Source of the DNA: Rozella allomycis CSF55
Taxonomy: Eukaryota
Direction of reading: 5' to 3'
NCBI GenBank assembly: GCA_000442015.1
Contig: KE561300.1
Coordinates: 124,001 to 185,330, forward strand
Length of the DNA stretch: 61,330 nt
Below, in pieces: positions 178-56,377 of this stretch. A program made the position numbers and the translations under genes. The notes under the pieces were generated by a model. It ran no database searches and was not told the DNA's origin. It saw nothing but the letters and a program-made list of their open reading frames with translations. Position 1 is the stretch's first letter. Each line of letters starts with the position of its first letter.

Positions 178-2831
178 ATGGCTACGACCGTACCTACGGG
201 AGCTTTATCGTCCTTGACTTTGTCTGACCTTCCAAAACGCCCTGATTATGGAAAGGTGGGTAAAAAGATACGTTTGAGAGCAAATATGCTAAAGGTAGTA
301 ATTTGTAAATAAGGCATAATAGATCCCTTCTTTTACCAATGGTACTATTTATCACTATGACGTGAACTTTGTTGGAGTTAGAAGTGGTGAAAGGTAAACT
401 TTTAGGTGGTCATCGACGGTAGGCGTATTTTTACTGAATTTCTTGCCCAATTTAAAGAGATTCATTTAAAGGGGATTAGTGTAGCGTTTGACGGAAAGAA
501 AAATTTATATACTTCTGCTAAAATTAATCGAATTTCTGGTAGACAGCCTTTGGTTGTTGAGTTTACAATTCAGGATGGCGCTAGGAAAAAAGATTTTAAG
601 ATTGAGATAAAACATGCAGCTGATGTAAACATGGCTGTACTCCATCAATTTTTTGAGAAGAGAATTGGAATGGTTCCCCAAGAATGCATTCAAGCATTGG
701 ACGTTATCATTAAACAAGGTCCATCAGTTAGTGGAAGATACACTTTGATAGGTTCATCAATGTACATGAGAGAGAATCCAGCTTCGTTAGGTAGTTGCAT
801 CGAAGTGTGGCCAGGGATATTTTTATCTGTGAGAGCAACACAAAGTGGACTTGTTTTGAATGCTGATACTGCAAACAATGCTTTTCTTGAGCCGTTGATG
901 ATATTAGATTGTGCTGCTAAAGTTGTTGGAGCAAGAAGTGCGTCTGATTTGAATTGCAAGTGGCATCCTGATGATATTAAAGAACTTGAGCGAAAATGGA
1001 GAGGAACACAAGTTCAAGTGACTCATTCCAATATTCCAAGAAAATACAAAATATTCGGGATAAAAAATATGTCTGTTAGAGAAATCAAGTAATTCTGTGT
1101 ACTTGTAAAAATATAGATTTAAGATGGAAGATGGAACGAATGTGTCTGTCTATGATTATTTTCAAAATCATTATAATAAGAAATTGGAATTTGATAAATG
1201 TCCTTGTTTAGCTGTTGGGCCTGAAGGCAAAACATTTCTTCCAATGGAAGTTTGTAAAATTGTGCAAGGGCAGCAGTAACAATACCTACAATTATCTTGT
1301 TTAGATATCGCAAAAAGTTAAATGAAGAACAAACGACGAATATGCTTGCTTTTGCTACTTTGAAACCAGAGGCTAGATTTAATCGCATTAGGACCAACAT
1401 GGCGCCAATGGTTGCAAACATGTCTGAAAATCTGAAAGGATTTGGAATAAATCTGTCTAATCAATTCTTGGAATGCGAAGGCAGAGTTTTAGATCCACCT
1501 GTTGTTCATTTTGGTGCAAATTCAACTTCAAGACCATCAGGAGGTGTTTGGAACATGAAAGACAAAAAATTGAATAGCACTGGAGCAGTTGAAAGTTGGG
1601 CTGTCGTTTCGTTTGATAATCGCTCTCGTCCAGATAAAATTTATGAATGGTTGGATGAATTTGGCAAAGTTGCTAGAAGTATGGGAATGGATGTTAAGTC
1701 AAGCAAGCCTCCTGTTCTCTCTGGTCGTCCAAATGAAGTTAAGAATGTCTTAAGAAAAGCCATTGATGATGCTGAGAGAATGTTCAAGAAGCCTTGTCAA
1801 TTTCTTCTTTGCATAATGCCACCCAGTGGTGTTTATGAAGATGTCAAAAAAATTATGGACTGTGAATTTGGTAAAGTGTCTCAATGCATGAAAGGAAAAC
1901 ATATTGGTAGACCAAATGGTTCTTACATGGCCAATCTTTTGCTCAAAATCAATTCTAAAATGGGCGGGGTAAATTTCCACTTGGACAAGGGTGTACCTTT
2001 TATCCTCCAAGAACCAACCCTGGTCTTTGGCGCAGACGTCACACATCCAGCCCCTGGTGAAAATTCATGTTCTATTGCAGCTGTTGTTGGTTCAACTGAT
2101 CCAAAGGTCACAAGATTTGTTTCTTCATTGGCTATTCAAGGGTCCAGGGTTGAAATTATTGATACTTTGAAAGATATGGCCAAAAATATTATCATGCAAT
2201 TCCGCGCCAAAAACAGAATTTTGCCACGCAGGATTATATTTTATAGGGATGGTGTAAGTGAAGGACAATTTAATGCAGTTCGTTCAAGCGAAATTTCTGC
2301 TTTGAAGAGAGCATTTGGAGAAATTGAAAAAGATTACAATCCAAAGCTCTTGTTTATTGTCGTTCAAAAGAGACATCATGTGAGATTTATGGCTGACCGT
2401 GCTGATTGTGACAGAAGTGGAAATGTGCCAGCAGGAACCGTTGTTGATAAAGAAGTCACTGCCCCTGATCGTTTTGAATTTTACTTGAATTCCCATGCTG
2501 GGCTTCAAGGTTGCAGTCGTCCGTCTCTTTATACTGTTATTTGGAATGACTTTCCTACGCTTACTTCTGATCAAATTCAAGAAATGACGTACAGAATGGT
2601 AATTACTTAAACTTGCGATGACTTTAGTGTTATACTTATGTTCGTTGTACGCGTAGTGTTTCTGTGGTTCCACCGGCTTATTATGCTCACCTTTTAGCTT
2701 TCCGTGCTCGCTTTCTTTTTAACGTTGAAAATGATCCTAATCGTATTCTCTCCCGTGAATATGTTGAAAAGGTTAGAAGTAAAATTCCACCTCTTTCTCC
2801 GGACATGATGAGAAGAATGTTTTACGTTTAA
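178..2831 (+). CDS. AGO1: Argonaute (N, PAZ, MID, PIWI), 5 introns
   Basis: [11 protein letters not shown]-terminus, [38 protein letters not shown]-terminal MFYV*. Introns 295-322, 394-422, 1089-1116, 1276-1304, 2599-2627 (28-29 nt) restore one frame. Confidence 0.97.
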
Positions 2832-12892: not shown

Positions 12893-14457
12893 ATGTGGGA
12901 AATTGAGGAGACCTTTGAAAACCTTATATTACGTGATATTCCTTACAGAATATGCATGAGGGCCAACTCCAATAAAATTTACATCCAGTTATTGGATAAA
13001 TTTACGGGAGATCTATTTTCTAATGAATTAAATGCCGAATGTAACGTAAAAGATATGTTTGGAATTCATAGACATCGAAGAAATGACCAAAAAGACTGGA
13101 AATTATAAAAAGTTTAACCTGTTTGTCGATATGGTTGCATCAGCAATACACAGGAAGGTAATATACATAGAAACGCATATTGGCAAGAATTCTACGGTTG
13201 GCTTTGACCTATTAAATCCAAGTGATATAGAAACATTGAAAGGGACAAAAAGATCGTCCATAAATACTGATCTTGACAGGTTAAAGAAGTATCTGGTCTT
13301 GAATTACGCAGTCGCATATGATAGGTACCATTATTTCCAAAATGGTTTCAGGGTTCATTATCCGTTGCCCTTAATTTTAAACGAAGAAGAAAACTGTCAA
13401 AAAGAAAACATCTTTCCTGGATCTCCAAACTTTCGAAAAGAACCCACTATTAAGGAAACATTAAGAACTTTGCGAAAAGAATATCAGCAGCTAGAATATG
13501 AATATCAACTAACAGTCGATAAATTGTCTGAAGTACTGTAATAGTTAATCACTTTATAGGTTATGCTGGAGAATGACAAACTCAGACACCAATTAAAGAC
13601 AAATAAACCAAACCCAAGGTAATAAAACACAAAGAATAGAAAACTAAAAGATTAAGCAGCATTTTAAAAGAGAAAGAATTAATTGAAAAAGCGTTTGATG
13701 ATTACAAGGATTACGCGGAACATGAAATCGGAGTGCTAAAAAATGAACTACGACAGTTAAAGGTTTTGAGAGCAAAAGAAAAGGAATACATAAGTATTAT
13801 AAAAGAAAAGGACAATAATATTGGAAGATTAATAGCAGAGTTGGACGATTCCAAGTCTCACGGCAAGAAACGGATATCAGCGGCGACCAATCCACGTAAA
13901 CGCAGCTCTAGCCTTAGTAGCTTAAAAAGCACTTCAAGTGATAGAATAAATCAACAAATATTACTCCCCGAAACTCGCTTACGACGCCCATCCCCTATGG
14001 CAAGATTTGATCCTACTCAATACATAAGGGAAAAAGAAAGAAAGGTAGAGAATTTGAGAAGGTAACATATTATTTTAAAATTTATATGCCGATCGAGGGA
14101 TTCAATGCGACCTCCAAAGAGGTCTTCCTCAGTGGAGTCGAGACAGTCAACTTCGTCCATCAGAAGCATGGCTTCTACGAGTAGAAAGTATTTTATTTTA
14201 TTAAAGGATCGAAAGGAAGCAACATTGGAGAAAGCGTCTTCGAACGCCTTTACAGTCAACGGAAGATTTTTAACAATAATTCTTATAACAACTCTTCAAA
14301 GTTTTCTCATGAAAGGATATATGATTCGAGCTTAGGTAGTTAGATTCTTAACCATTCAATAGGAGCGACGTCTATAGCCAGGCCTACAACCTTGACCATT
14401 GAAGAACGTTTAGCCAATTTACAAAAAATGATAGCAAAATCTAAGTTACAATCATAA
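12893..14457 (+). CDS. CCDC61: Centrosomal/basal-body protein CCDC61 (VFL3), about 8 introns
   Basis: YIEEMTKKTGNYKKF, KKYLVLNYAVAYDRVHYPLPL, RFDPTQYI and IEERLANLQ match CCDC61 conserved blocks. Confidence 0.88.
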
Positions 14458-29147: not shown

Positions 29148-30863
29148 CAGAAAACAGCGCTCATAACTCCACTAATACCTCTGCGTTTAATAGTGTGGTA
29201 GATCTAGTTGATTGCCTATTATCGAATGGCCCCTCAGAAACATTCAAAAGACTCTGCAAAATAAAGGTCACCCCAGATTTTTGGAACTATCGACTCGCTT
29301 AGCAGAAGAAGCATTAAAACTCAACGATATTAATGCAGTTGAAGAGATTGTGGAATCAACCTTGGAATGGATCAGCTTAAGAAATTATTCGACATTGAAC
29401 CCGTGGTCTGTTGGTGAAGACGATTTTGAAGAACCCCGAGATGAAAGAGTTGAAAGAAAAGAAACTGAGTTTAAAAGACAAAGCGAAGTTAAACCACACA
29501 TCGAAGTTAAAAGACATGATGAAAAGAGAAATTCATTTTACGCGCGAAAAAAGAGAAGAATATTAAAGGGCAGGGGATATAGAAAATTAAAGAGTAAAAG
29601 TGAGAGTGAAATAGAGCATGAGAGTAGTGATGTTAAAATTGGAGGTGAGATTGGCAAGACTGTTGCTTTAAGTGATGAGAGTAGATTTGATAAGGAGAGT
29701 ATTTTTAGTGGAAGGAGTAGTAGAGAAAGCAGTGTTAGTAGAAGTCCAAATAGAACTAGAAGGGAGAGTAGCATTATTAGAGATAGTGAAAGTAATAGAA
29801 GGGAGAGTACAAGAAGGGAGAGTGAAAGTATAAGAGATACTGCACATACCAATATTGATCATCATAGACAAAGTGCACACCCTCATAACAAATTGAGGAA
29901 ATGCCAAGAAAAGGCAAACAAAAAGATAAAGATAATGATAATAATGAGAATGATGATCTATGTATTCAAATTTTAAACCTTTTACCCTTAAAAATTTTTT
30001 AAACAATTCTGATGCATCCACTAGTGGAGTGTCAGAATCATTGTAACATGTTTGAAATAACATCTTTCGCGAGCTTGAATCTTCGCGGTTTAAAAAACTA
30101 TAATGATTTACTTTTTTTAAAACATTTCTTTGAAAATTTTATAAAAAATCAGATAAAGATTTTATGTATTCAAGATCATCATTTTGTAGATGATTTTCCT
30201 ATTGATCTTTTCCCTAATAGTGTGTGGACGTCAGCAAACTCCAGTCATCATGGAGGAGTAGCTATAATATCTTTTGATCAATCTATTAAATTTAATATCA
30301 TTCAATCTTCTTCAAATTATCTTTTAGCAAATATTACAGCTAATTATATTGATATTCAAGATTTATATATATTAAATATTTAGGGTCCTCCCCAAAAAAC
30401 TTTAATTACGGAATTTGTAAAGACTTTACCGGATATCAAAAAATATACCAATCTTGTAGTCATGGGTGATTTTAATTGTACGACATATATAAATGACCGG
30501 ACACCTCAAACTGGTGTAGATCAAAGATATTGGAATTATTGGAGCAATTGGCTAAATGGATTGACAGATGTTTTTGACTTGTGTGGACAACATGAATATA
30601 GATTTACATACATAAATGCTTCTCGAGAAAACTCAAAGAGTAGAATAGACAAATTCTTTATTTCTGAAAATTTAAAGACACTTTTAGAGAAACCTTTAGA
30701 ACATATATATTACCCACGATCAGACCATATGATAATCACAATGGAATTAGGTTCTCGAAATAGGCATGAATATGGAACAGGATTTTGGAAAATGAATAAT
30801 TCTGTATTATCTGAATTTTTTTTAAATATATACAATTAAGTCAATAATCGTATTTATTAAGGA
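29148..30863 (+). mobile_element. Non-LTR (L1/Tx1-like) retrotransposon fragment: ORF1-like region + APE endonuclease, inactivated
   Basis: SLNLRGL, ILCIQD, GGVAII, MGDFN, SRIDKFF, SDH, GFWKMNNSVL; in-frame TAG at 30381-30383; bounded by n's. Confidence 0.8.
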
Positions 30864-46406: not shown

Positions 46407-47524
46407 GACCAAAATTGTAGTTCAGGTTAATAACACGAAGAATTCTCCGATGATTATGAAAGAGTTTAACTTACCAAGTTTTCTTGAACGCGTATTCTCG
46501 TATATATTTATTGTAACATTAAACATTTGATTCTGACAGAGTAGAAAAAGAGGCCGCCATAAGCCAAAAAATATTTTTGATAGACTGATTAGCAAAGTAC
46601 AGTCTCTTTTGTGTAATGATAGACTATTGGCTCTTGGACACCAAAGGTGTTTACAGTAATGTTCTTCTTGTGCGTATCGTATTCCCTTCATTCCACTTGT
46701 CTAGAAGAAAAATACATCAACGATGAAGAGGAGAAAGTATGTAAAATATTAATGCCTGTTTTTCACGCTGCCTTCCAAGGTTTCACAAGCCTTTACCATG
46801 AAATACTTAAAATTGTTCTAAGCTTTCACATCAATGATGTACAGATACAGAAATATGTGCCACTGAAATTTATTGGTGATGCATTGAATGTTATGAACAT
46901 TNTCTTCACTTCATCAAAAAATATGAATGTTTGAAAGATTGCAACGTAAATTGATAAACGATGGATATTGTAAGGATAAATGCAGAATATAATAGCCAAG
47001 ACGTCAATGAACAGATTTTGGAAATTCATGACCAAAATTGTAGTTCAGGTTAATAACACGAAGAATTCTCCGATGATTATGAAAGAGTTTAACTTACCAA
47101 GTTTTCTTGAACGCGTATTCTCGTATATATTTATTGTAACATTAAACTTTTGATTCTGACAGAGTAGAAAAAGAGGCCGCCATAAGCCAAAAAATATTTT
47201 TGATAGACTGATTAGCAAAGTACAGTCTCTTTTGTGTAATGATAGACTATTGGCTCTTGGACACCAAAGGTGTTTACAGTAATGTTCTTCTTGTGCGTAT
47301 CGTATTCCCTTCATTCCATTTGCCTAGAAGAAAAATACATCAACGATGAAGAAGAGAAAGTATGTAACATATTAATGCCTGTTTTTCACGCTGCCTTCCA
47401 AGGTTTCACAAGCCTTTACCATGAAATACTTAAAATTGTTCTAAGCTTTCACATCAATGATGTACAGATACAGAAATATGTGCCACTGAAATTTATTGGT
47501 GATGCATTGAATGTTATGAACATT
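46280..47524. repeat. About 620-bp near-identical duplication across n46902 (probable haplotype/assembly overlap)
   Basis: 46280-46901 matches 46903-47524 with only scattered substitutions. Confidence 0.9.
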
Positions 47525-47669: not shown

Positions 47670-48708
47670 TTATTTTTGTAAGTGGTGCAAATGTATTGAA
47701 AATAGTTTCTATATCTTTGATTGAATACCCTTACGATCATCGATCGGTCATATTTTCTAGTGATGTACTTTGGAACGACCGTGATGTCAATATCATGAAT
47801 AGTTAGCTTAAAGAATCTGTCGGAAAAACAAAATGGCTCGCATATTCTTGATTTGAAAAACTCAAAAAATTCGTTTTGAGGTTTTAATGATTTTTTTGTT
47901 AATATGACTCTACAATTTACTCATTCGCATCTTAATACCTGTCTTCCTGAACTATCCATACACTTGTTTTTAAGTTTGCCAAAAATCTTCGCGACAAGGT
48001 AAACTGGAGCACGAAGATAAAAGCTTCTGTCAAATAATCATCATATACAACTGATCTTAAATTTCTACATGTGAATACTATCAGATGCTACAATAGCTGT
48101 ATAATTAGAGTGAAGAATATATCGCAAATCATCTTCGGATATGTCATCCATCGACCCGGCACCTGTTAATGAGTTGCTTAAAAATGATTGAACCCAATCT
48201 AAACATTTCGCGACTACATTTTTGTATGCACTGAGATTCGACTTGCAGTTTTCGATGACTTCTCTAGTGTCCAAACCAAAAATACGAATATTTTTACCAG
48301 TAACATAAACTACGCCTCTACAGAGAATTCCGCACACTGCCCCACATAAACCGACTCCACTTCCTAATTCTAGAATACATTCAGCTTGCTTTATTTCATT
48401 ACGATTATGTACAAGCCATTCCATTAGCATTAGACTAGACTTCCAAGGCTGTGCCTAAAAATACAAACGTTTACCATAAAACCAACTTCATTGAGGTTAG
48501 TTTTTACTTTTAGATCACTATTAAATTGAATTTCATGATGTTCATCATAAACATAATCCCCATCTGCATCAATAAAGGGAGTTTCCAGAGGGATCCTTAT
48601 ACCGATGTTTAATGTTGATTCATCCTCATAAATATTTAACAATTCATTGTTTATATACTCTACATTATCTTATGAACACTATTAAGATTATATACTTTGT
48701 GTGGTCAT
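47670..48708 (-). CDS. Seven-beta-strand lysine methyltransferase, METTL22-like, about 6 introns
   Basis: DADGD, EVGFMPWKSSLML, ILELGSGVGLCG, CLDW, IVASDIVYDDYLTEAF. Confidence 0.8.
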
Positions 48709-49899: not shown

Positions 49900-52800
49900 C
49901 AATCTATTTCCATGTACTGACGTAGTTAATTCCGTCCCATCCAATTTAGCCAGCGTGTAACTTCCGTTCCCATGGTGTCGAACAATCATGTAGGGCCCTC
50001 TATAGCGATTCTTGAATTTTCTTCCAACATTGATGGCTCAAAACATTCTTCAAAAATCAAAACCAAATCTCCCTCAATAAATGGATTTTTTCTTATATTC
50101 TTTTTATCATTGTACCATCTCATATTCTTTATTCTCGACTCAACAATATTCTCCTTTGCTATTTCTAAATCTTCTGGCAACTTTGCCAATTGCTTTATTC
50201 TCAATTCCAACAATTCTTCTCTAAAACCGCCACTCTAGCGCATACCACGACAAGATATCCATCTCGGCAGGTAAAATACAATTTCGACCGAACATTAGAG
50301 TAAAAGGAGCATATCCAGTAGACTTCTTTATGGTCACATTATTGGCCCAAAATGCCGAATGGAGATATTCCGGCCACAAACCTTTCTTCTCTTCCCCAAG
50401 CCATCTGCTTAATGCCTTCACAAGAGGCTGATGCCCTCTCTCAACCACTCCGTTCGCCTGTGGGTGATACGCGGTCGTAAATACAGTAGGAATTCCGTAA
50501 TTTTCCAGAAACAAATTTATCTCTTCTTCATTCATCTCTCCATTGTCTGCAACAAATCTTCCCACACAACCATATCTCGCAATGTATACTTTTAGGAACT
50601 TAGCCACTCCAGAACTTTTCTTCGATTTTTAAGCTTTTCCATCAACAAAACCAGTAAGAGCATCCCTAGCGTTTACGAAATAGTTCTCCCCATTCTTGCC
50701 GTTCGGCATCTTTACTAAATCAACGTGAACAATATGTAAAACTCCGGTATTAAATAAATTATGGTTCAATGGTTCTTCGACTGACAACAACTGGCATTCA
50801 ATACAGCTCTTTATATAATTCGCGACATCAATATACATGTTTTCCCAATAATAATTCAAAGTTAACTCTTGTATGTTCCGTCTCTTTCCCTATGTCCTCC
50901 TGTTACTCCTTCATGGAATTCGGCCAGTTATCTCATTTTTAAGTCTTCATCCAGAATCACTCTACTCGGCGGCAAATTAAAAGACGCCGATCTTTTCCAC
51001 AACAAACCATTACTAATAAATAAATCTTGACTCATCATTTTTATTTTTTCAAACTCTTTGTCCGAAAGATGTTCCGGTTTAGATAATGTCATTAAATACT
51101 CGCACAAACTTTACCATATTCCAGTATAATTCGTAAGGTCCAATGTAACATGTCTAACAAATATATCTAAATTCGCAATCCTTTTCTCTTTTAATAGCAT
51201 TGTCATTGCGTCTGCTTCCTTATCAATATCTTCTTTCTCAACACAAGCATAGCGTCTCCGGCTTAACCCATCGGCTTTATTCTTGGCTGTGTCGACATAT
51301 CGTGCTGCAAAATTAAAGGATCGAATAAACGCAATCCACCTAGCACCGTTGGATCAGGAAACTCCTCAGCATTAAACCAGTATAAAAGTGCTCTGTTATC
51401 TACCTCTAACCTAAACTTAGTTCCAAATATATAGGGCCTAAATTTCTTTAAATTATGAACAACGGCGAGACATTCTTTCTTCACAATAGAATAATTCCTT
51501 TCGGTGGCATTGAACAACTTACCTTCAAATTTGCATGGGTGCCTCTTTCCATCTGGTTTTACCTGTTCCAAAATGCCTCCCAATCCGTCCTTGCTAGCGT
51601 CATAGGTGGTCGATTCTCAACATCATTATAGTCTAGCTCTTGAACGATCGGGTCAGAAGCCACAACTTTCTTCAAATATTCGAAAGCTCTCTCGTGCTTC
51701 TCCAACCAAATAAATTCAACATCATTCTTCAATAAATTCAGCAAGGGTGCAGCAAGCGCAGAAAATGAATAAATCAAACTTTTATAATGCTTGACAGTTC
51801 CTCAAAACGAATGTACATCCTTCGTCGATTCAGGTCTGGGCCATTCCAATATTTTCTCCCTGTTTCTTGTACATATCCTTCTGCCTTCGGCATTACACAA
51901 ATAGCTAAAAACCTCAATTTCGGGAACACAAAAAGAACATTTCATCCCACTAACGGTCAGCTTAGAACGCAAAATCCTCTCAAATATTTTCTCCAAGTCT
52001 TCCAAGTGTGAACGAATAAATTTTCGTATTCCATTTTCAACTTCATCGTTATTCGTCGTTACTCTCTCTCCTTTCACAGCAATATCATCTATATATCGCA
52101 TGTTTCCGGAATTAAATCTCGCAGCACTGTTGTGTTCACTCTCTGCGCGACAGCTACTGAGTTCGTCCAACCTTGAGGCAAGCAAGTAACACGAACAAAT
52201 CCAACCGGGGTATTCATGGCGGTCAGATCGCGATCTTTAACGTCGATAGGAATTCGATCAAAAAAACTATAAAAGTCCAACATCGAGTACACTCTTCCCC
52301 CGGCGAATCTTTCACTCATCTTGTCACAATTCGGAATATGTGCACAGTCTCGTATAGTCACTATATTCAGCGGAATAACACGCTGGATCATTCTCAACGA
52401 CCCGTTACGCTTTCGTAGAACAAACCAACGGTTTGCATACGCACTTTCACAATATTCCAGAAATCCGGCGTCCAATTTCTTCCTCAACAACGCGATCACG
52501 TCTGCCAGCTCTTTTGCAACATATTTCGGGCAAGGTCGTTTCCAGGGCGTATGTTCGACAACATGAATTCTCACAGGCTTGAAAATTTCGGATGAAAGTT
52601 TTCCTTTTAAGTTATCATCAAACGTAAAAATACTCTCGTACTTCTTCAATAAAATTCGTAATGCTTCTCGTTCTTTTTCGTTTAGCAACGTCGAACTTGT
52701 TAACATATCCAGCTGTTCGTCTGTTAATTTTCTCATACTCTCTCGTCTCTCAGCAGCCATTTCTTCCACTTGATCTAACTTCACAGCGACGTCTTCAGGG

Positions 52801-55015
52801 ACCATAGCTTGTGGGTGAATTGTCTCGTTTACTTTCTTGTGGCGTCTTTTGTTTCCGCTCGCTCTTCGGAATCTTGTTGACCTTGCCTCTAAAGCTCTTG
52901 GCAATATTCATATCTATCTCAAACAACAATTTTTCACCATTTTTAATAAATTTATTAACGTCATTTTCTTCATTTATCTCAATCTCTTCTCCGAAACTCG
53001 GACTTTTCTCACTAGACTCGACAATTTCTTCCGCAGAATCTTCTTGCATCCTGAACAACTGTGTCTTCGCGGTTCCCTTCCACGCAACCCCGTTCATCAC
53101 GTTACACTTCAGCTGGCACGACTTCCCGTCTGCTCCTTGAATGTCCAGCTGCACATCGCCATTCGGAAAATTCTGAGTTATTACCGATGCAGCACACTCG
53201 AAAGGTTTTCCTAATAAAACATTAAAAATTGACTCCCCTTGCGTGACATAACACGGGACCTCGACTGTCACCCCATGAAAAGTAATGGGTAGTGCATGAA
53301 TGCAGCCAACTGCCATTCGGATTTAACATATTTATGGTCGCCTTAGCGTCAATACCGCCTAACAACTGCAAGTAAACACTCTCACTCATGACATTGATCT
53401 CCGAGCCGGAATCAATTGTCACTTCAACCTCCACGCCGCCGACTTTGGCAGGTACTTTCACAACTTTAGTCCTGTAAATCCCTTCTGACCTAAATCTTCT
53501 CACAATTGCTTCATGCATTTCTTCCACATGCTCCATCTCTTCTTGGCTCACTGCATTCACTTTCACTGCTTCCACAGGTACTCTTATTTTTCAGAAATAA
53601 TGCCAGATCCTTCGAAATACTTGGCGATGCTCCTAAAATCTGTTCAATGCTCATCTCCACCTTCTGACTTAGAATTCTATTCATGATTGCCTTAGTGTCA
53701 ACGATTTGTTCTGCAGGACTCTTGTGCATGGTCTTCTTCTTCATCTCCAAAGCTGGTGGTCTTGGGATCGGCATTGTTTCTGGTAATTTTAATGTCACCT
53801 CCTTCTTATCTATTTTTCGTCTTTTCATTTCCTCATCCAACTCCTCGTTCATCCATTTTGCGCCATCACCTCCGCGTCGATTGTCTCACCTTCTACCTCT
53901 TTCATAATCCTCACGAAGACATCATTCTCACTCGGCATTCTTGGTGCTTCTTGCATCTTGAACAACATTGCTCTTGGCTGGTTAGTCTTCTCCTGAAATC
54001 TTCGCTCAGCTTCAACTCTCATTCCTCCGTTCCCGAAATTGATCTTCAGTCGATTCCCGTCACAGTCGCAGATAACTTTGCTTCCATCTCTCTCAACACT
54101 CTGCACAATCCCATTTTTCACTGCCGCTTCAAACAATAAACAATTCTTCAAATACGGGTTGGTGTCGCCACAGTAAATACATTCATTTGAACGTTGCCCA
54201 GTAGTTACATTTTGCGGTGCTTCCATCATTCGATCGCGCCGTGATCGCCAGCGCCATCGCCTGAAACAGTCCAGAGAGATCTGCAACAGATGCTACGGAA
54301 TTACTTGACTTCGTGACTGCGTGTACAACATTAGCTTCACCCTTCGTCTCCTGAACTTCTTTTTCTTCTACGTTCTCAAACTCGAAGGTCTTAATGTTCT
54401 TTAAGGTCGTCAACAGCTGAGTAGACTCATCGTCGATTTCTTGGTTGTCTTCGATGATGCGTATCAGGGATTTGATGCTCTGCTTCTTCACGTCATCCGA
54501 CGTGTAGTCGCCAAAGACTTTCTTCACTAATGTTTCTGGTAAGCTTAAAAACAGTAACTTCACAAGATTTCTCTCAATTAGTCAACTTCGCTCTCATCCA
54601 TACTCTCGTACATAGCCTTCAAGCTCGACAATAAAATGCTCACATCGTCCGACCTCTTGGCCAGGCTCATAAAATCATCCATTCCGTACTTTACGTCAAA
54701 CTTCCCATACTTGGCTTTTATTGACCTCGTTAATCTTCTAAAACTTCTCCCAAGTGACCTGTTCCTCTTCCGCAGCTCTCACTCGGTCAACCAACTCCTT
54801 CACATCCTCAAACAAATACTTCTCACACATGTACGGAAAGATACTAAACACTTCTTCAATACTTTTGCCTTGCATAACCATCAGCTTCTCGTACTCCCAC
54901 ATGAACTGGCCAACTTTCTTTCCTGCGAAAGGGGTAAAACCACCTTCCACGATGTTCGCACCACTTATGAAAGTGCCAGAAGGGGCGCGCGACTTAGACT
55001 CTTTAGCAGTAGACA
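49900..55015 (-). mobile_element. Degenerate Ty3/gypsy LTR retrotransposon internal region
   Basis: Order gag - protease (IDSGSEIN) - RT (LPQGW, YIDD) - RNase H (ERNYS..KECLA) - integrase (VHVDL, ADNG, YHPQANGVVER); multiple frameshifts; bounded by n49899 and n55016, LTRs not seen. Confidence 0.93.
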
Positions 55016-56377
55016 NCATTTTCCAAATTAACTTGTTAAATATATCAAGAGGATAAACTAAAGATATGAAAAAACGAAATTTGTTTAATGTGTTACTGTT
55101 GTAGCCAGTAGCACCAAGAATTTCTTGTGATTTCTTTGGAGTTTCTTCAGACAAATTCTATTTTTAGTTAATTTATCTATTTCTAGTTATTGTATTAATT
55201 AAATACTTGAATTTCTTTTTCTAATAAGTTTTGAATTCAATTCTCTCCAACAAGTCTCGCATTACTCGTTAAATCGGACGGGGAGTTTATAAGTTAAAGC
55301 TATAGAAAAGTTATAAAGCTAATTGTGGCTAAGAACGAAGATTTAGATGCTAAGGTTCAAGAAATACTTCAAGAAAAAGAAGAACGTACGATATAGAATT
55401 AGAATGTAAGCATAAAGACATTAAATAAATAGATATAATGTATTATTATGTAGGTATATATCAAGCTGGTCTATTAAATAGGAATTGAATTTTAAGAACA
55501 GGAGCTAGATGATATAGCATTGAAATATTTTTGTTGGTCGCTATAAATATCACAACATGTGCCAAGCCACACAAAAAATGTTTTTCTGGAGTCTGTTGAC
55601 ATTTGCTACGATCCTATTTAGAACTTTTGTAGCCGCATCTCCAACTCTTGGATTATCTGAAAGTGAGTTTACACGCAAACTTGACAAGTTTATTCACATG
55701 AAAGACTTGAATGATGTAGACGAAGCCAATGATATGTTAGAATTTATAGGAAGCAATAATTTACCAACAGGAATTCCTTGGAATCAATTTAAGGAAGTCA
55801 CAAATCAAATTTTTGAATGTTTGAAGGCGGAAACTCTTAGACAGCCAGCATGCAAGGCATTTGAAAAAATTGTATCGGTAGATAATAACAAATACTTTAT
55901 GTATAATGGAAGACGAAAATATGATATTAAGCCTTATATGTATAAGTTATTAGAGAACATCAATGAAGCATCCAGGTATTTAGACCAAGAGAGTCTTCTC
56001 TACGTTTACAAAAGTGTTGCGTCTATTATTGAATATGGATATGCTGGCAATAATTTAAGAGATCATGAAAATAATTATGCTAAAAGCATTATGTCTGTGC
56101 CGAATGAAATGATTGAAGAGGTGTGGAAAGCAATTCATAATGACAATACTGAAGGGGTTAATGTTTTGGATGAAAATCAAATTGATAAAATATTAAATAT
56201 TTTAAATATGTATAACGCGGCGCCTCATTATAGTCTTTTTCATCAACATATTTCAAAGAACATATTTGATTTGTTTAGTAAATTTATATTCAATAAAGAG
56301 ATTGTGGATGCGTCTGGAAAAACGGAAGAAATGATGAATGGATTTAGTAAATTTTCTTATTCTTATGTAATCAACGC

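Follow-up and report, generated by a model that had tools for sequence, protein, structure and literature searches.

The METTL22-like methyltransferase gene of Rozella allomycis CSF55 carries, at the end of strand 2 of the encoded fold, a 27-nt stretch that starts with GT, ends with GG, stays in frame and contains no stop codon. The question is whether these letters are an intron that is still removed at a non-AG end or an old intron that is now read as protein. We analyzed the locus within the window (61,330 nucleotides of GenBank contig KE561300.1, positions 124,001 to 185,330) and set it against intron predictions across 985,330 bases of the genome. The explanation that we favor, with moderate confidence, is that an ancestral U2-type METTL22 intron carries a GG acceptor and would still be spliced there in part of the transcripts.

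The METTL22-like gene and the 27-nt stretch

The RPL3 encoded in the window is 100% identical to a Rozella allomycis protein. The METTL22-like gene lies on the minus strand (47670..48708). The inferred model has seven exons (48708-48696, 48668-48475, 48448-48298, 48270-48079, 48050-47939, 47909-47735, and 47708-47670), encodes 291 aa with all six introns removed, and draws on profile, translation, and tree. Apart from the 27-nt candidate, which is the third, the introns are GT-AG: intron 1 (48669..48695, 27 nt), predicted from the sequence alone; intron 2 (48449..48474, 26 nt); intron 4 (48051..48078, 28 nt, phase 1, after the Asp of DxxY), where the isoforms P0124 and P0166 diverge and P0134 ends; intron 5 (47910..47938, 29 nt); and intron 6 (47709..47734, 26 nt). 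The start and the first intron are the least certain parts of the model. For intron 2, a 20-nt AG at 48455 is also in frame; the protein reads VGFMPW after the modeled intron, lacking the Gln that is invariant in 8/8 orthologues (G-x-Q-x-W), and VGFMAQPW with the 20-nt alternative.

The METTL22-like identity proposed in the original prediction held up. The protein matches PF10294 and scored 124 bits against a profile of eight METTL22-like sequences, and it retains motif I (ELGSGVG), DxxY (as DIVY), DW, and the C-terminal motifs; methyltransferase activity is predicted from these sequence features. A FastTree analysis (30 sequences, including other family-16 members; 211 columns; midpoint root) placed it with 16 METTL22-like sequences (support 0.87), where its branch is the longest. 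A DNA search found the gene in single copy. Among three of its four R. allomycis paralogues that were read, two have TD uninterrupted, one has QD, and none has the METTL22-like intron layout; the fourth (L016) falls outside the motif pattern used. Both public models of the gene (EPZ31187.1, 173 aa, and RKP21346.1, 181 aa; annotated as hypothetical protein) read through the 27 nt and are truncated.

By eye, a near-identical direct repeat of ~400 nt with ~620-nt spacing (about 46500-46900 and 47120-47520) lies downstream of the gene. On inspection by eye, open reading frames at about 50200-55200 resemble a Ty3/gypsy-type retroelement, those at 30000-30840 a LINE-type endonuclease, and those at 406-2610 (+) an Argonaute gene.

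Positions 48297-48271 of the minus strand read GTAAAAATATTCGTATTTTTGGTTTGG, with ACT G on the 5' side and AC ACT on the 3' side of these 27 nt. Rereading the window letters confirmed the in-frame GT...GG stretch (48271..48297), a phase 1 candidate intron inside the Thr|Asp codon junction, and translation reproduced the predicted effect of excision, which turns VYVT-GKNIRIFGL-D into VYVTD. Class I methyltransferases of this family bind SAM through an acidic residue that closes strand 2, and among the translated products of this gene that residue is present only with removal at GG. The donor, described beforehand as typical, ranks at the 72nd percentile of 684 predicted R. allomycis donors, and the acceptor flank ranks at the 27th percentile of predicted introns. 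GC content is 0.26 against a predicted-intron mean of 0.255. With its GTA donor, AT-rich composition, and length within 26-31 nt, the stretch is like R. allomycis mini-introns, and the terminal AG is absent. A donor at least as strong, followed by a 27- or 30-nt stretch ending in TG, CG, or GG, occurs 16 times in 265,409 predicted coding positions, and twice with GG as the ending. U12-type (minor) introns have the donor motif RTATCCTT; the donor here, GTAAAAAT, is unlike it, and that class was rejected. Profiles of predicted R. allomycis introns gave no clear branch-point consensus.

The GG end is genomic and not an assembly error. A single contig of sequencing run X2 (depth 297) spans it with 0 other letters; run X4 (depth 9) shows no difference across 48271-48297 yet departs from the window sequence 28 nt upstream (48325); and the window has no N in this region. 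It is accordingly highly improbable that GG stems from a sequence error or that the site is heterozygous (AG/GG), even though a single-base assembly error lies nearby (an A missing after 47626 in the window relative to runs X2, X4, and X6) and the runs differ at other sites. The confirmation comes from the contigs of X2 and X4, in which minor alleles get dropped, so that the existence of an AG allele at the acceptor is judged unlikely. Run X6 leaves the intron uncovered, as does the RNA run X8, which yielded three short, poorly matching pieces; neither run bears on expression. The extra A after 47626 falls past the stop codon of the METTL22-like gene at 47670.

Aligning the gene to family proteins bore out the expected acidic residue and revealed a conserved break at the same junction. 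Among 55 hits, 38 have [TS]-D and 1 has T-E, and these read on without an insert; 14 have T-G, of which 2 are the public models of this gene and 12 are gene calls from other genomes; the other 2 are fragments without motif I. Similarity in the 12 foreign T-G calls stops at query residue 48-65 and gives way to unrelated sequence or a stop. Two mutually close metagenome loci read ACA G|GT and then a stop at the DNA level; from these two loci, the Gly of the T-G calls would consist of the last G of the exon plus the GT of a donor. Since 12 calls break at Thr|Asp and 39 read on with Asp or Glu, a phase 1 intron at this junction appears to be common to distant eukaryotes. That the 27 nt are an intron by origin, as was first proposed, is well supported by the conserved position, the strong donor, the modal length, and the intron-like composition. 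An older AG would lie behind the GG acceptor, with a single A-to-G substitution in a TAG as the simplest route. A word-indexed search with the retained open reading frame found no close relative among longer proteins, and a metagenome scan found no rozellid homologue, giving two loci at 35-36% identity.

Competing splice ends and retention

Intron lengths were taken from a small self-trained gene finder run on 94 separate pieces (985,330 bases), counting introns whose flanking exons are at least 45 nt; all intron statistics given here are finder predictions and not RNA-mapped introns. Lengths of 26-31 nt account for 1289 of 1409 predictions, and lengths of 24, 34, 36, and 39 nt for 0, 0, 1, and 0. 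Because a trained length prior could reinforce itself, the run was repeated with a flat prior, which placed 1088/1336 introns at 26-31 nt (259 of them at 27 nt) and 11, 8, 5, and 6 at 24, 34, 36, and 39 nt. Acceptors are AAG in 214/684 introns and donors GTA in 96% (585-kb set). Stopless introns make up 38/213 of those with 3n length and 170/471 of the others in the same set, a scarcity that may partly be finder bias. At this locus the finder left the 27-nt intron uncalled, even with non-AG ends permitted.

Two AG dinucleotides follow the GG end (48262..48265), a TAG at +7 and a GAG at +9. The original prediction listed both and described their effects correctly: use of the 34-nt TAG end leads out of frame into a stop, and use of the 36-nt GAG end removes DTR. 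Its list was incomplete, lacking a 26-nt TG end, a 39-nt AAG acceptor, and another donor, at 48285. The second donor (C|GTATTT, 48259..48285) is weak and in frame with an AG at 48262 (24 nt) or 48259 (27 nt); neither product has the Asp. Ordinary GT-AG splicing by any of these five routes would keep canonical ends throughout, and two of them have some merit. The 24-nt form keeps the helix register and scored 123.5 bits against the profile of eight METTL22-like orthologues, compared with 124.1 for the GG product and 120.3 for retention, so that the score lead of the GG product over its rivals is small; the second-donor 27-nt form has modal length and the AAG end common here. We nevertheless consider GT-AG splicing very unlikely. 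All of its products lose the Asp or the frame; the length rule puts the 34- and 36-nt rivals outside the 26-31-nt range, and 24 and 39 nt are likewise rare among predictions; the acceptor flanks rank at the 1st to 10th percentile; and the second donor ranks at the 2nd percentile and lies off the conserved intron position.

The TG end sits one base upstream of GG. Splicing there (48272..48297, 26 nt) puts translation out of frame and ends it two codons later (VYVTGH*), and if it prevailed, the allele would be null or down-tuned by nonsense-mediated decay. TG is the commonest non-AG end in the genome-wide calls described below (17/22), 26 nt is also a modal length, and a UPF1 gene is present. 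Set against this, the four downstream exons are open and conserved, which is unexpected for a long-standing null, and we regard predominant use of TG as quite unlikely.

Retention is the alternative that most needs weighing. The 27 nt are 3n in length and stopless, so nothing forces their removal and a retained copy escapes decay. The acceptor would then be dead and the intron de-intronised, adding nine residues and presenting Gly in place of the SAM-binding Asp, a change tolerated under relaxed selection. A possible reason for such tolerance lies in the substrate. METTL22 is a family 16 lysine methyltransferase whose described target is K135 of KIN17; K135R strongly cuts KIN17 methylation, and the same report describes METTL22 as absent where the KIN17 lysine is unconserved (PMC3547847). 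R. allomycis KIN17 (L020:1501-1716, G000:C805) has Arg at the position of human K135, though the METTL22-like gene is kept. The long branch and the lost invariant Gln point the same way, as do the coding differences of run X4, which are 3/3 non-synonymous (47870, E234D; 47883, K230T; 48325, L111F); one further residue difference is found in the second public model. Relaxed selection on the gene is thus a real possibility, although three variants are too few to show it and the gene is otherwise undamaged. The two public models, which include the 27 nt as coding sequence, overlook ordinary introns as well and are therefore no evidence either way on splicing.

Several observations speak against retention, which we judge unlikely on the whole. 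Neither the remaining five introns nor the 291-aa frame shows damage, and motif I, DW, DxxY, and the C-terminal motifs are kept; the 27 nt preserve a strong donor, intron composition, and the exact modal length; and an insert before the acidic residue occurs in 0/39 read-through homologues. In a structural model of the retained 129-aa fragment, strand 2 ends at Gly53 and Asp62 falls within the following helix, an alignment-driven result from which retention would probably cost activity. The idea that retained IRIFGLD forms a new strand 2 was not supported by this model, which follows the alignment.

Non-AG mini-introns elsewhere in the genome

Removal at GG would be easier to accept if other R. 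allomycis introns dispensed with AG. When every non-AG dinucleotide was scored alike, the finder made non-AG calls for 50/1440 predicted introns (985 kb). Eleven were excluded for a non-GTA donor, a length outside 26-31 nt, or an N. The remaining 39 include 22 that end in TG (17), GG (3), or CG (2), where the share expected under the null is 0.128 (p ~1e-10); over all 50 calls the count is 23. These endings amount to ~1.5% of all calls. AA, AT, and AC ends number 7 and are not above background, so the excess is not random decay of AG. An in-frame GT/GC-AG alternative is lacking for 9/22 of the TG/CG/GG calls, and 0/22 have one of 26-31 nt. The other 17/39 calls, with other dinucleotides, probably reflect noise of the finder, errors in the assembly, or broken genes.

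Individual genes illustrate the class. A PHO85/CDK5-like CDK gene has a frame-breaking 26-nt GT-TG intron (L099:7157-7182, +), and only this intron restores the register: the exons end at CDK2 residue 194 and resume at 196, with the junction supplying the one residue between. In a DUF846 gene, profile positions 79 and 80 become adjacent on removal of a 26-nt GT-CG intron (L053:5749-5774, +), for which the reading frame offers no canonical alternative. A D-2-hydroxyglutarate dehydrogenase-like gene (D2HGDH) has two successive non-AG introns (L036:508-535 and 625-651, +); the first ends in TG, and the second ends in ATGG, which allows either TG (26 nt) or GG. For this second intron we tentatively prefer the TG end. 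For the GG call in PGAP2IP, a 29-nt TG end fits better, with a one-residue overlap at profile position 121, and the third GG call lies in unconserved sequence. The three GG calls in the 985 kb therefore yielded no second firm GG-ended intron, and GG is the weakest class of these ends and the rarest that is well supported, far rarer than TG.

Further TG/CG/GG mini-intron calls lie at L002, L006, L008, L023, L028, L050, L056, L058, L076, L077, L079, L081, L087, L088, and L094, and several of the genes with such calls have Pfam matches (COG4, YEATS, ECH_1, C2, and PGAP2IP). The window itself holds a non-AG call at 14062-14089 (+) that ends in ...TATGC, with a 27-nt TG end one base earlier. A search of main texts in a largely open-access collection found no paper reporting non-AG acceptors from Rozella.

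A broken spliceosome was considered as the cause and rejected. R. allomycis has Prp18, Slu7, U6 with the usual core, and a conserved U2AF1 (one copy read), all ordinary-looking in the parts read, and no absent component to blame for non-AG ends was found among them. A mechanism compatible with these observations would have the spliceosome recognize tiny introns chiefly through their GTA donor and a length of 26-31 nt, the donor of so short an intron setting a narrow window for the 3' end. Within that window the last G may be needed more than the preceding A, and the last intron G could dock against the first intron G without it. Since other mini-introns of this genome seem to do without the A, the METTL22-like GG intron is probably still partly removed. 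Removal at GG in a useful share of transcripts would restore the SAM-binding Asp; the remaining transcripts would probably be retained forms (in frame, with Gly for Asp) or forms cut at TG, with a premature stop.

A broader proposal is possible but tentative, and we would sooner doubt than assert it: with Prp18, Slu7, and U2AF1 present, wild-type R. allomycis may pick the 3' ends of its 26-31-nt introns by donor distance plus a single G, a few percent of these introns may be constitutively AG-less, and the adjacent TG and GG ends of METTL22 may act as a switch between productive and decay-bound mRNA. Confirmation in RNA would make R. allomycis a natural system for studying 3' splice-site choice by length and one base, and many public R. 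allomycis gene models would need correction. The Arg in KIN17 turns the METTL22-like gene into a test of whether non-AG acceptors are used or merely tolerated.

Comparison with known splicing systems

Annotated fungal introns are reported to be GT-AG in 98.7% of cases (PMC7072748), and the figure listed for R. allomycis is 2.5 introns per kb (PMC8476143). Isolated GT-GG introns are rare but already described; the weight of the present case comes from the percent-level occurrence of predicted mini-introns that lack the A and have no AG to fall back on. The METTL22-like intron resembles known GT-GG introns and not canonical ones. It is one of the weaker proofs of the genome-wide class, and it is the first case in this analysis tied to a conserved intron position.

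The gene itself shares with METTL22 the PF10294 domain, METTL22-type motifs, intron positions, and tree grouping; it differs in its long branch, in the replaced Gln of G-x-Q-x-W, and in the Arg that stands for the substrate lysine in KIN17.

Among described GT-GG introns, the U2-type example in human BANP has a GG that arose from an older AG (PMC4176328), six are described in Drosophila, five of them with RNA-seq support (PMC4528330), and 38 (0.04%) are given for Ganoderma lingzhi (PMC11590231). The BANP and METTL22-like introns share a GT donor and a GG end, and an older AG is proposed for the Rozella intron as well. As those reports describe them, the BANP GG is an alternative site and 5/6 of the fly cases have a similar alternative splice. 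In Rozella, by contrast, no end other than GG preserves the conserved Asp, and the intron, predicted from DNA, is just 27 nt long.

The human U2 TG-AG tandem 3' splice sites surveyed by Szafranski et al. (2007) have a constitutive AG, and that survey reports finding no constitutive TG acceptors (PMC2374985). Both systems combine a non-AG end whose last letter is G with an AG close by (7 and 9 nt downstream in Rozella). In the METTL22-like gene, by contrast, use of the nearby AGs would cost either the reading frame or the Asp, and 9/22 other calls have no in-frame AG alternative to turn to.

In Saccharomyces cerevisiae lacking Prp18, Roy et al. (2023) describe activated BG 3' splice sites (UG, CG, and GG), with UGG among the better used, and explain them by the final G of the intron pairing with its first G (PMC10711555). 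Rozella shares the UG/CG/GG spectrum, but yeast needs the mutation for it, whereas R. allomycis has Prp18. Aroian et al. (1993) reportedly described non-AG acceptors in short introns of Caenorhabditis elegans. For short introns of the same worm, Ragle et al. (2015) report that AG can be dispensable, with reliance on a UUUC tract adjacent to the site (PMC4484395). Unlike those of the worm, the Rozella introns show neither a UUUC tract nor a clear branch motif in profiles. At the far end of the range stands Fritillaria borealis, where 95% of introns are reported to escape GT/AG and U2AF is duplicated and divergent (PMC13326754). Fritillaria borealis and R. allomycis have in common a genome-wide relaxation of the AG rule, which in Rozella reaches only ~1.5% TG/CG/GG calls and occurs alongside a U2AF1 whose one copy read is conserved.
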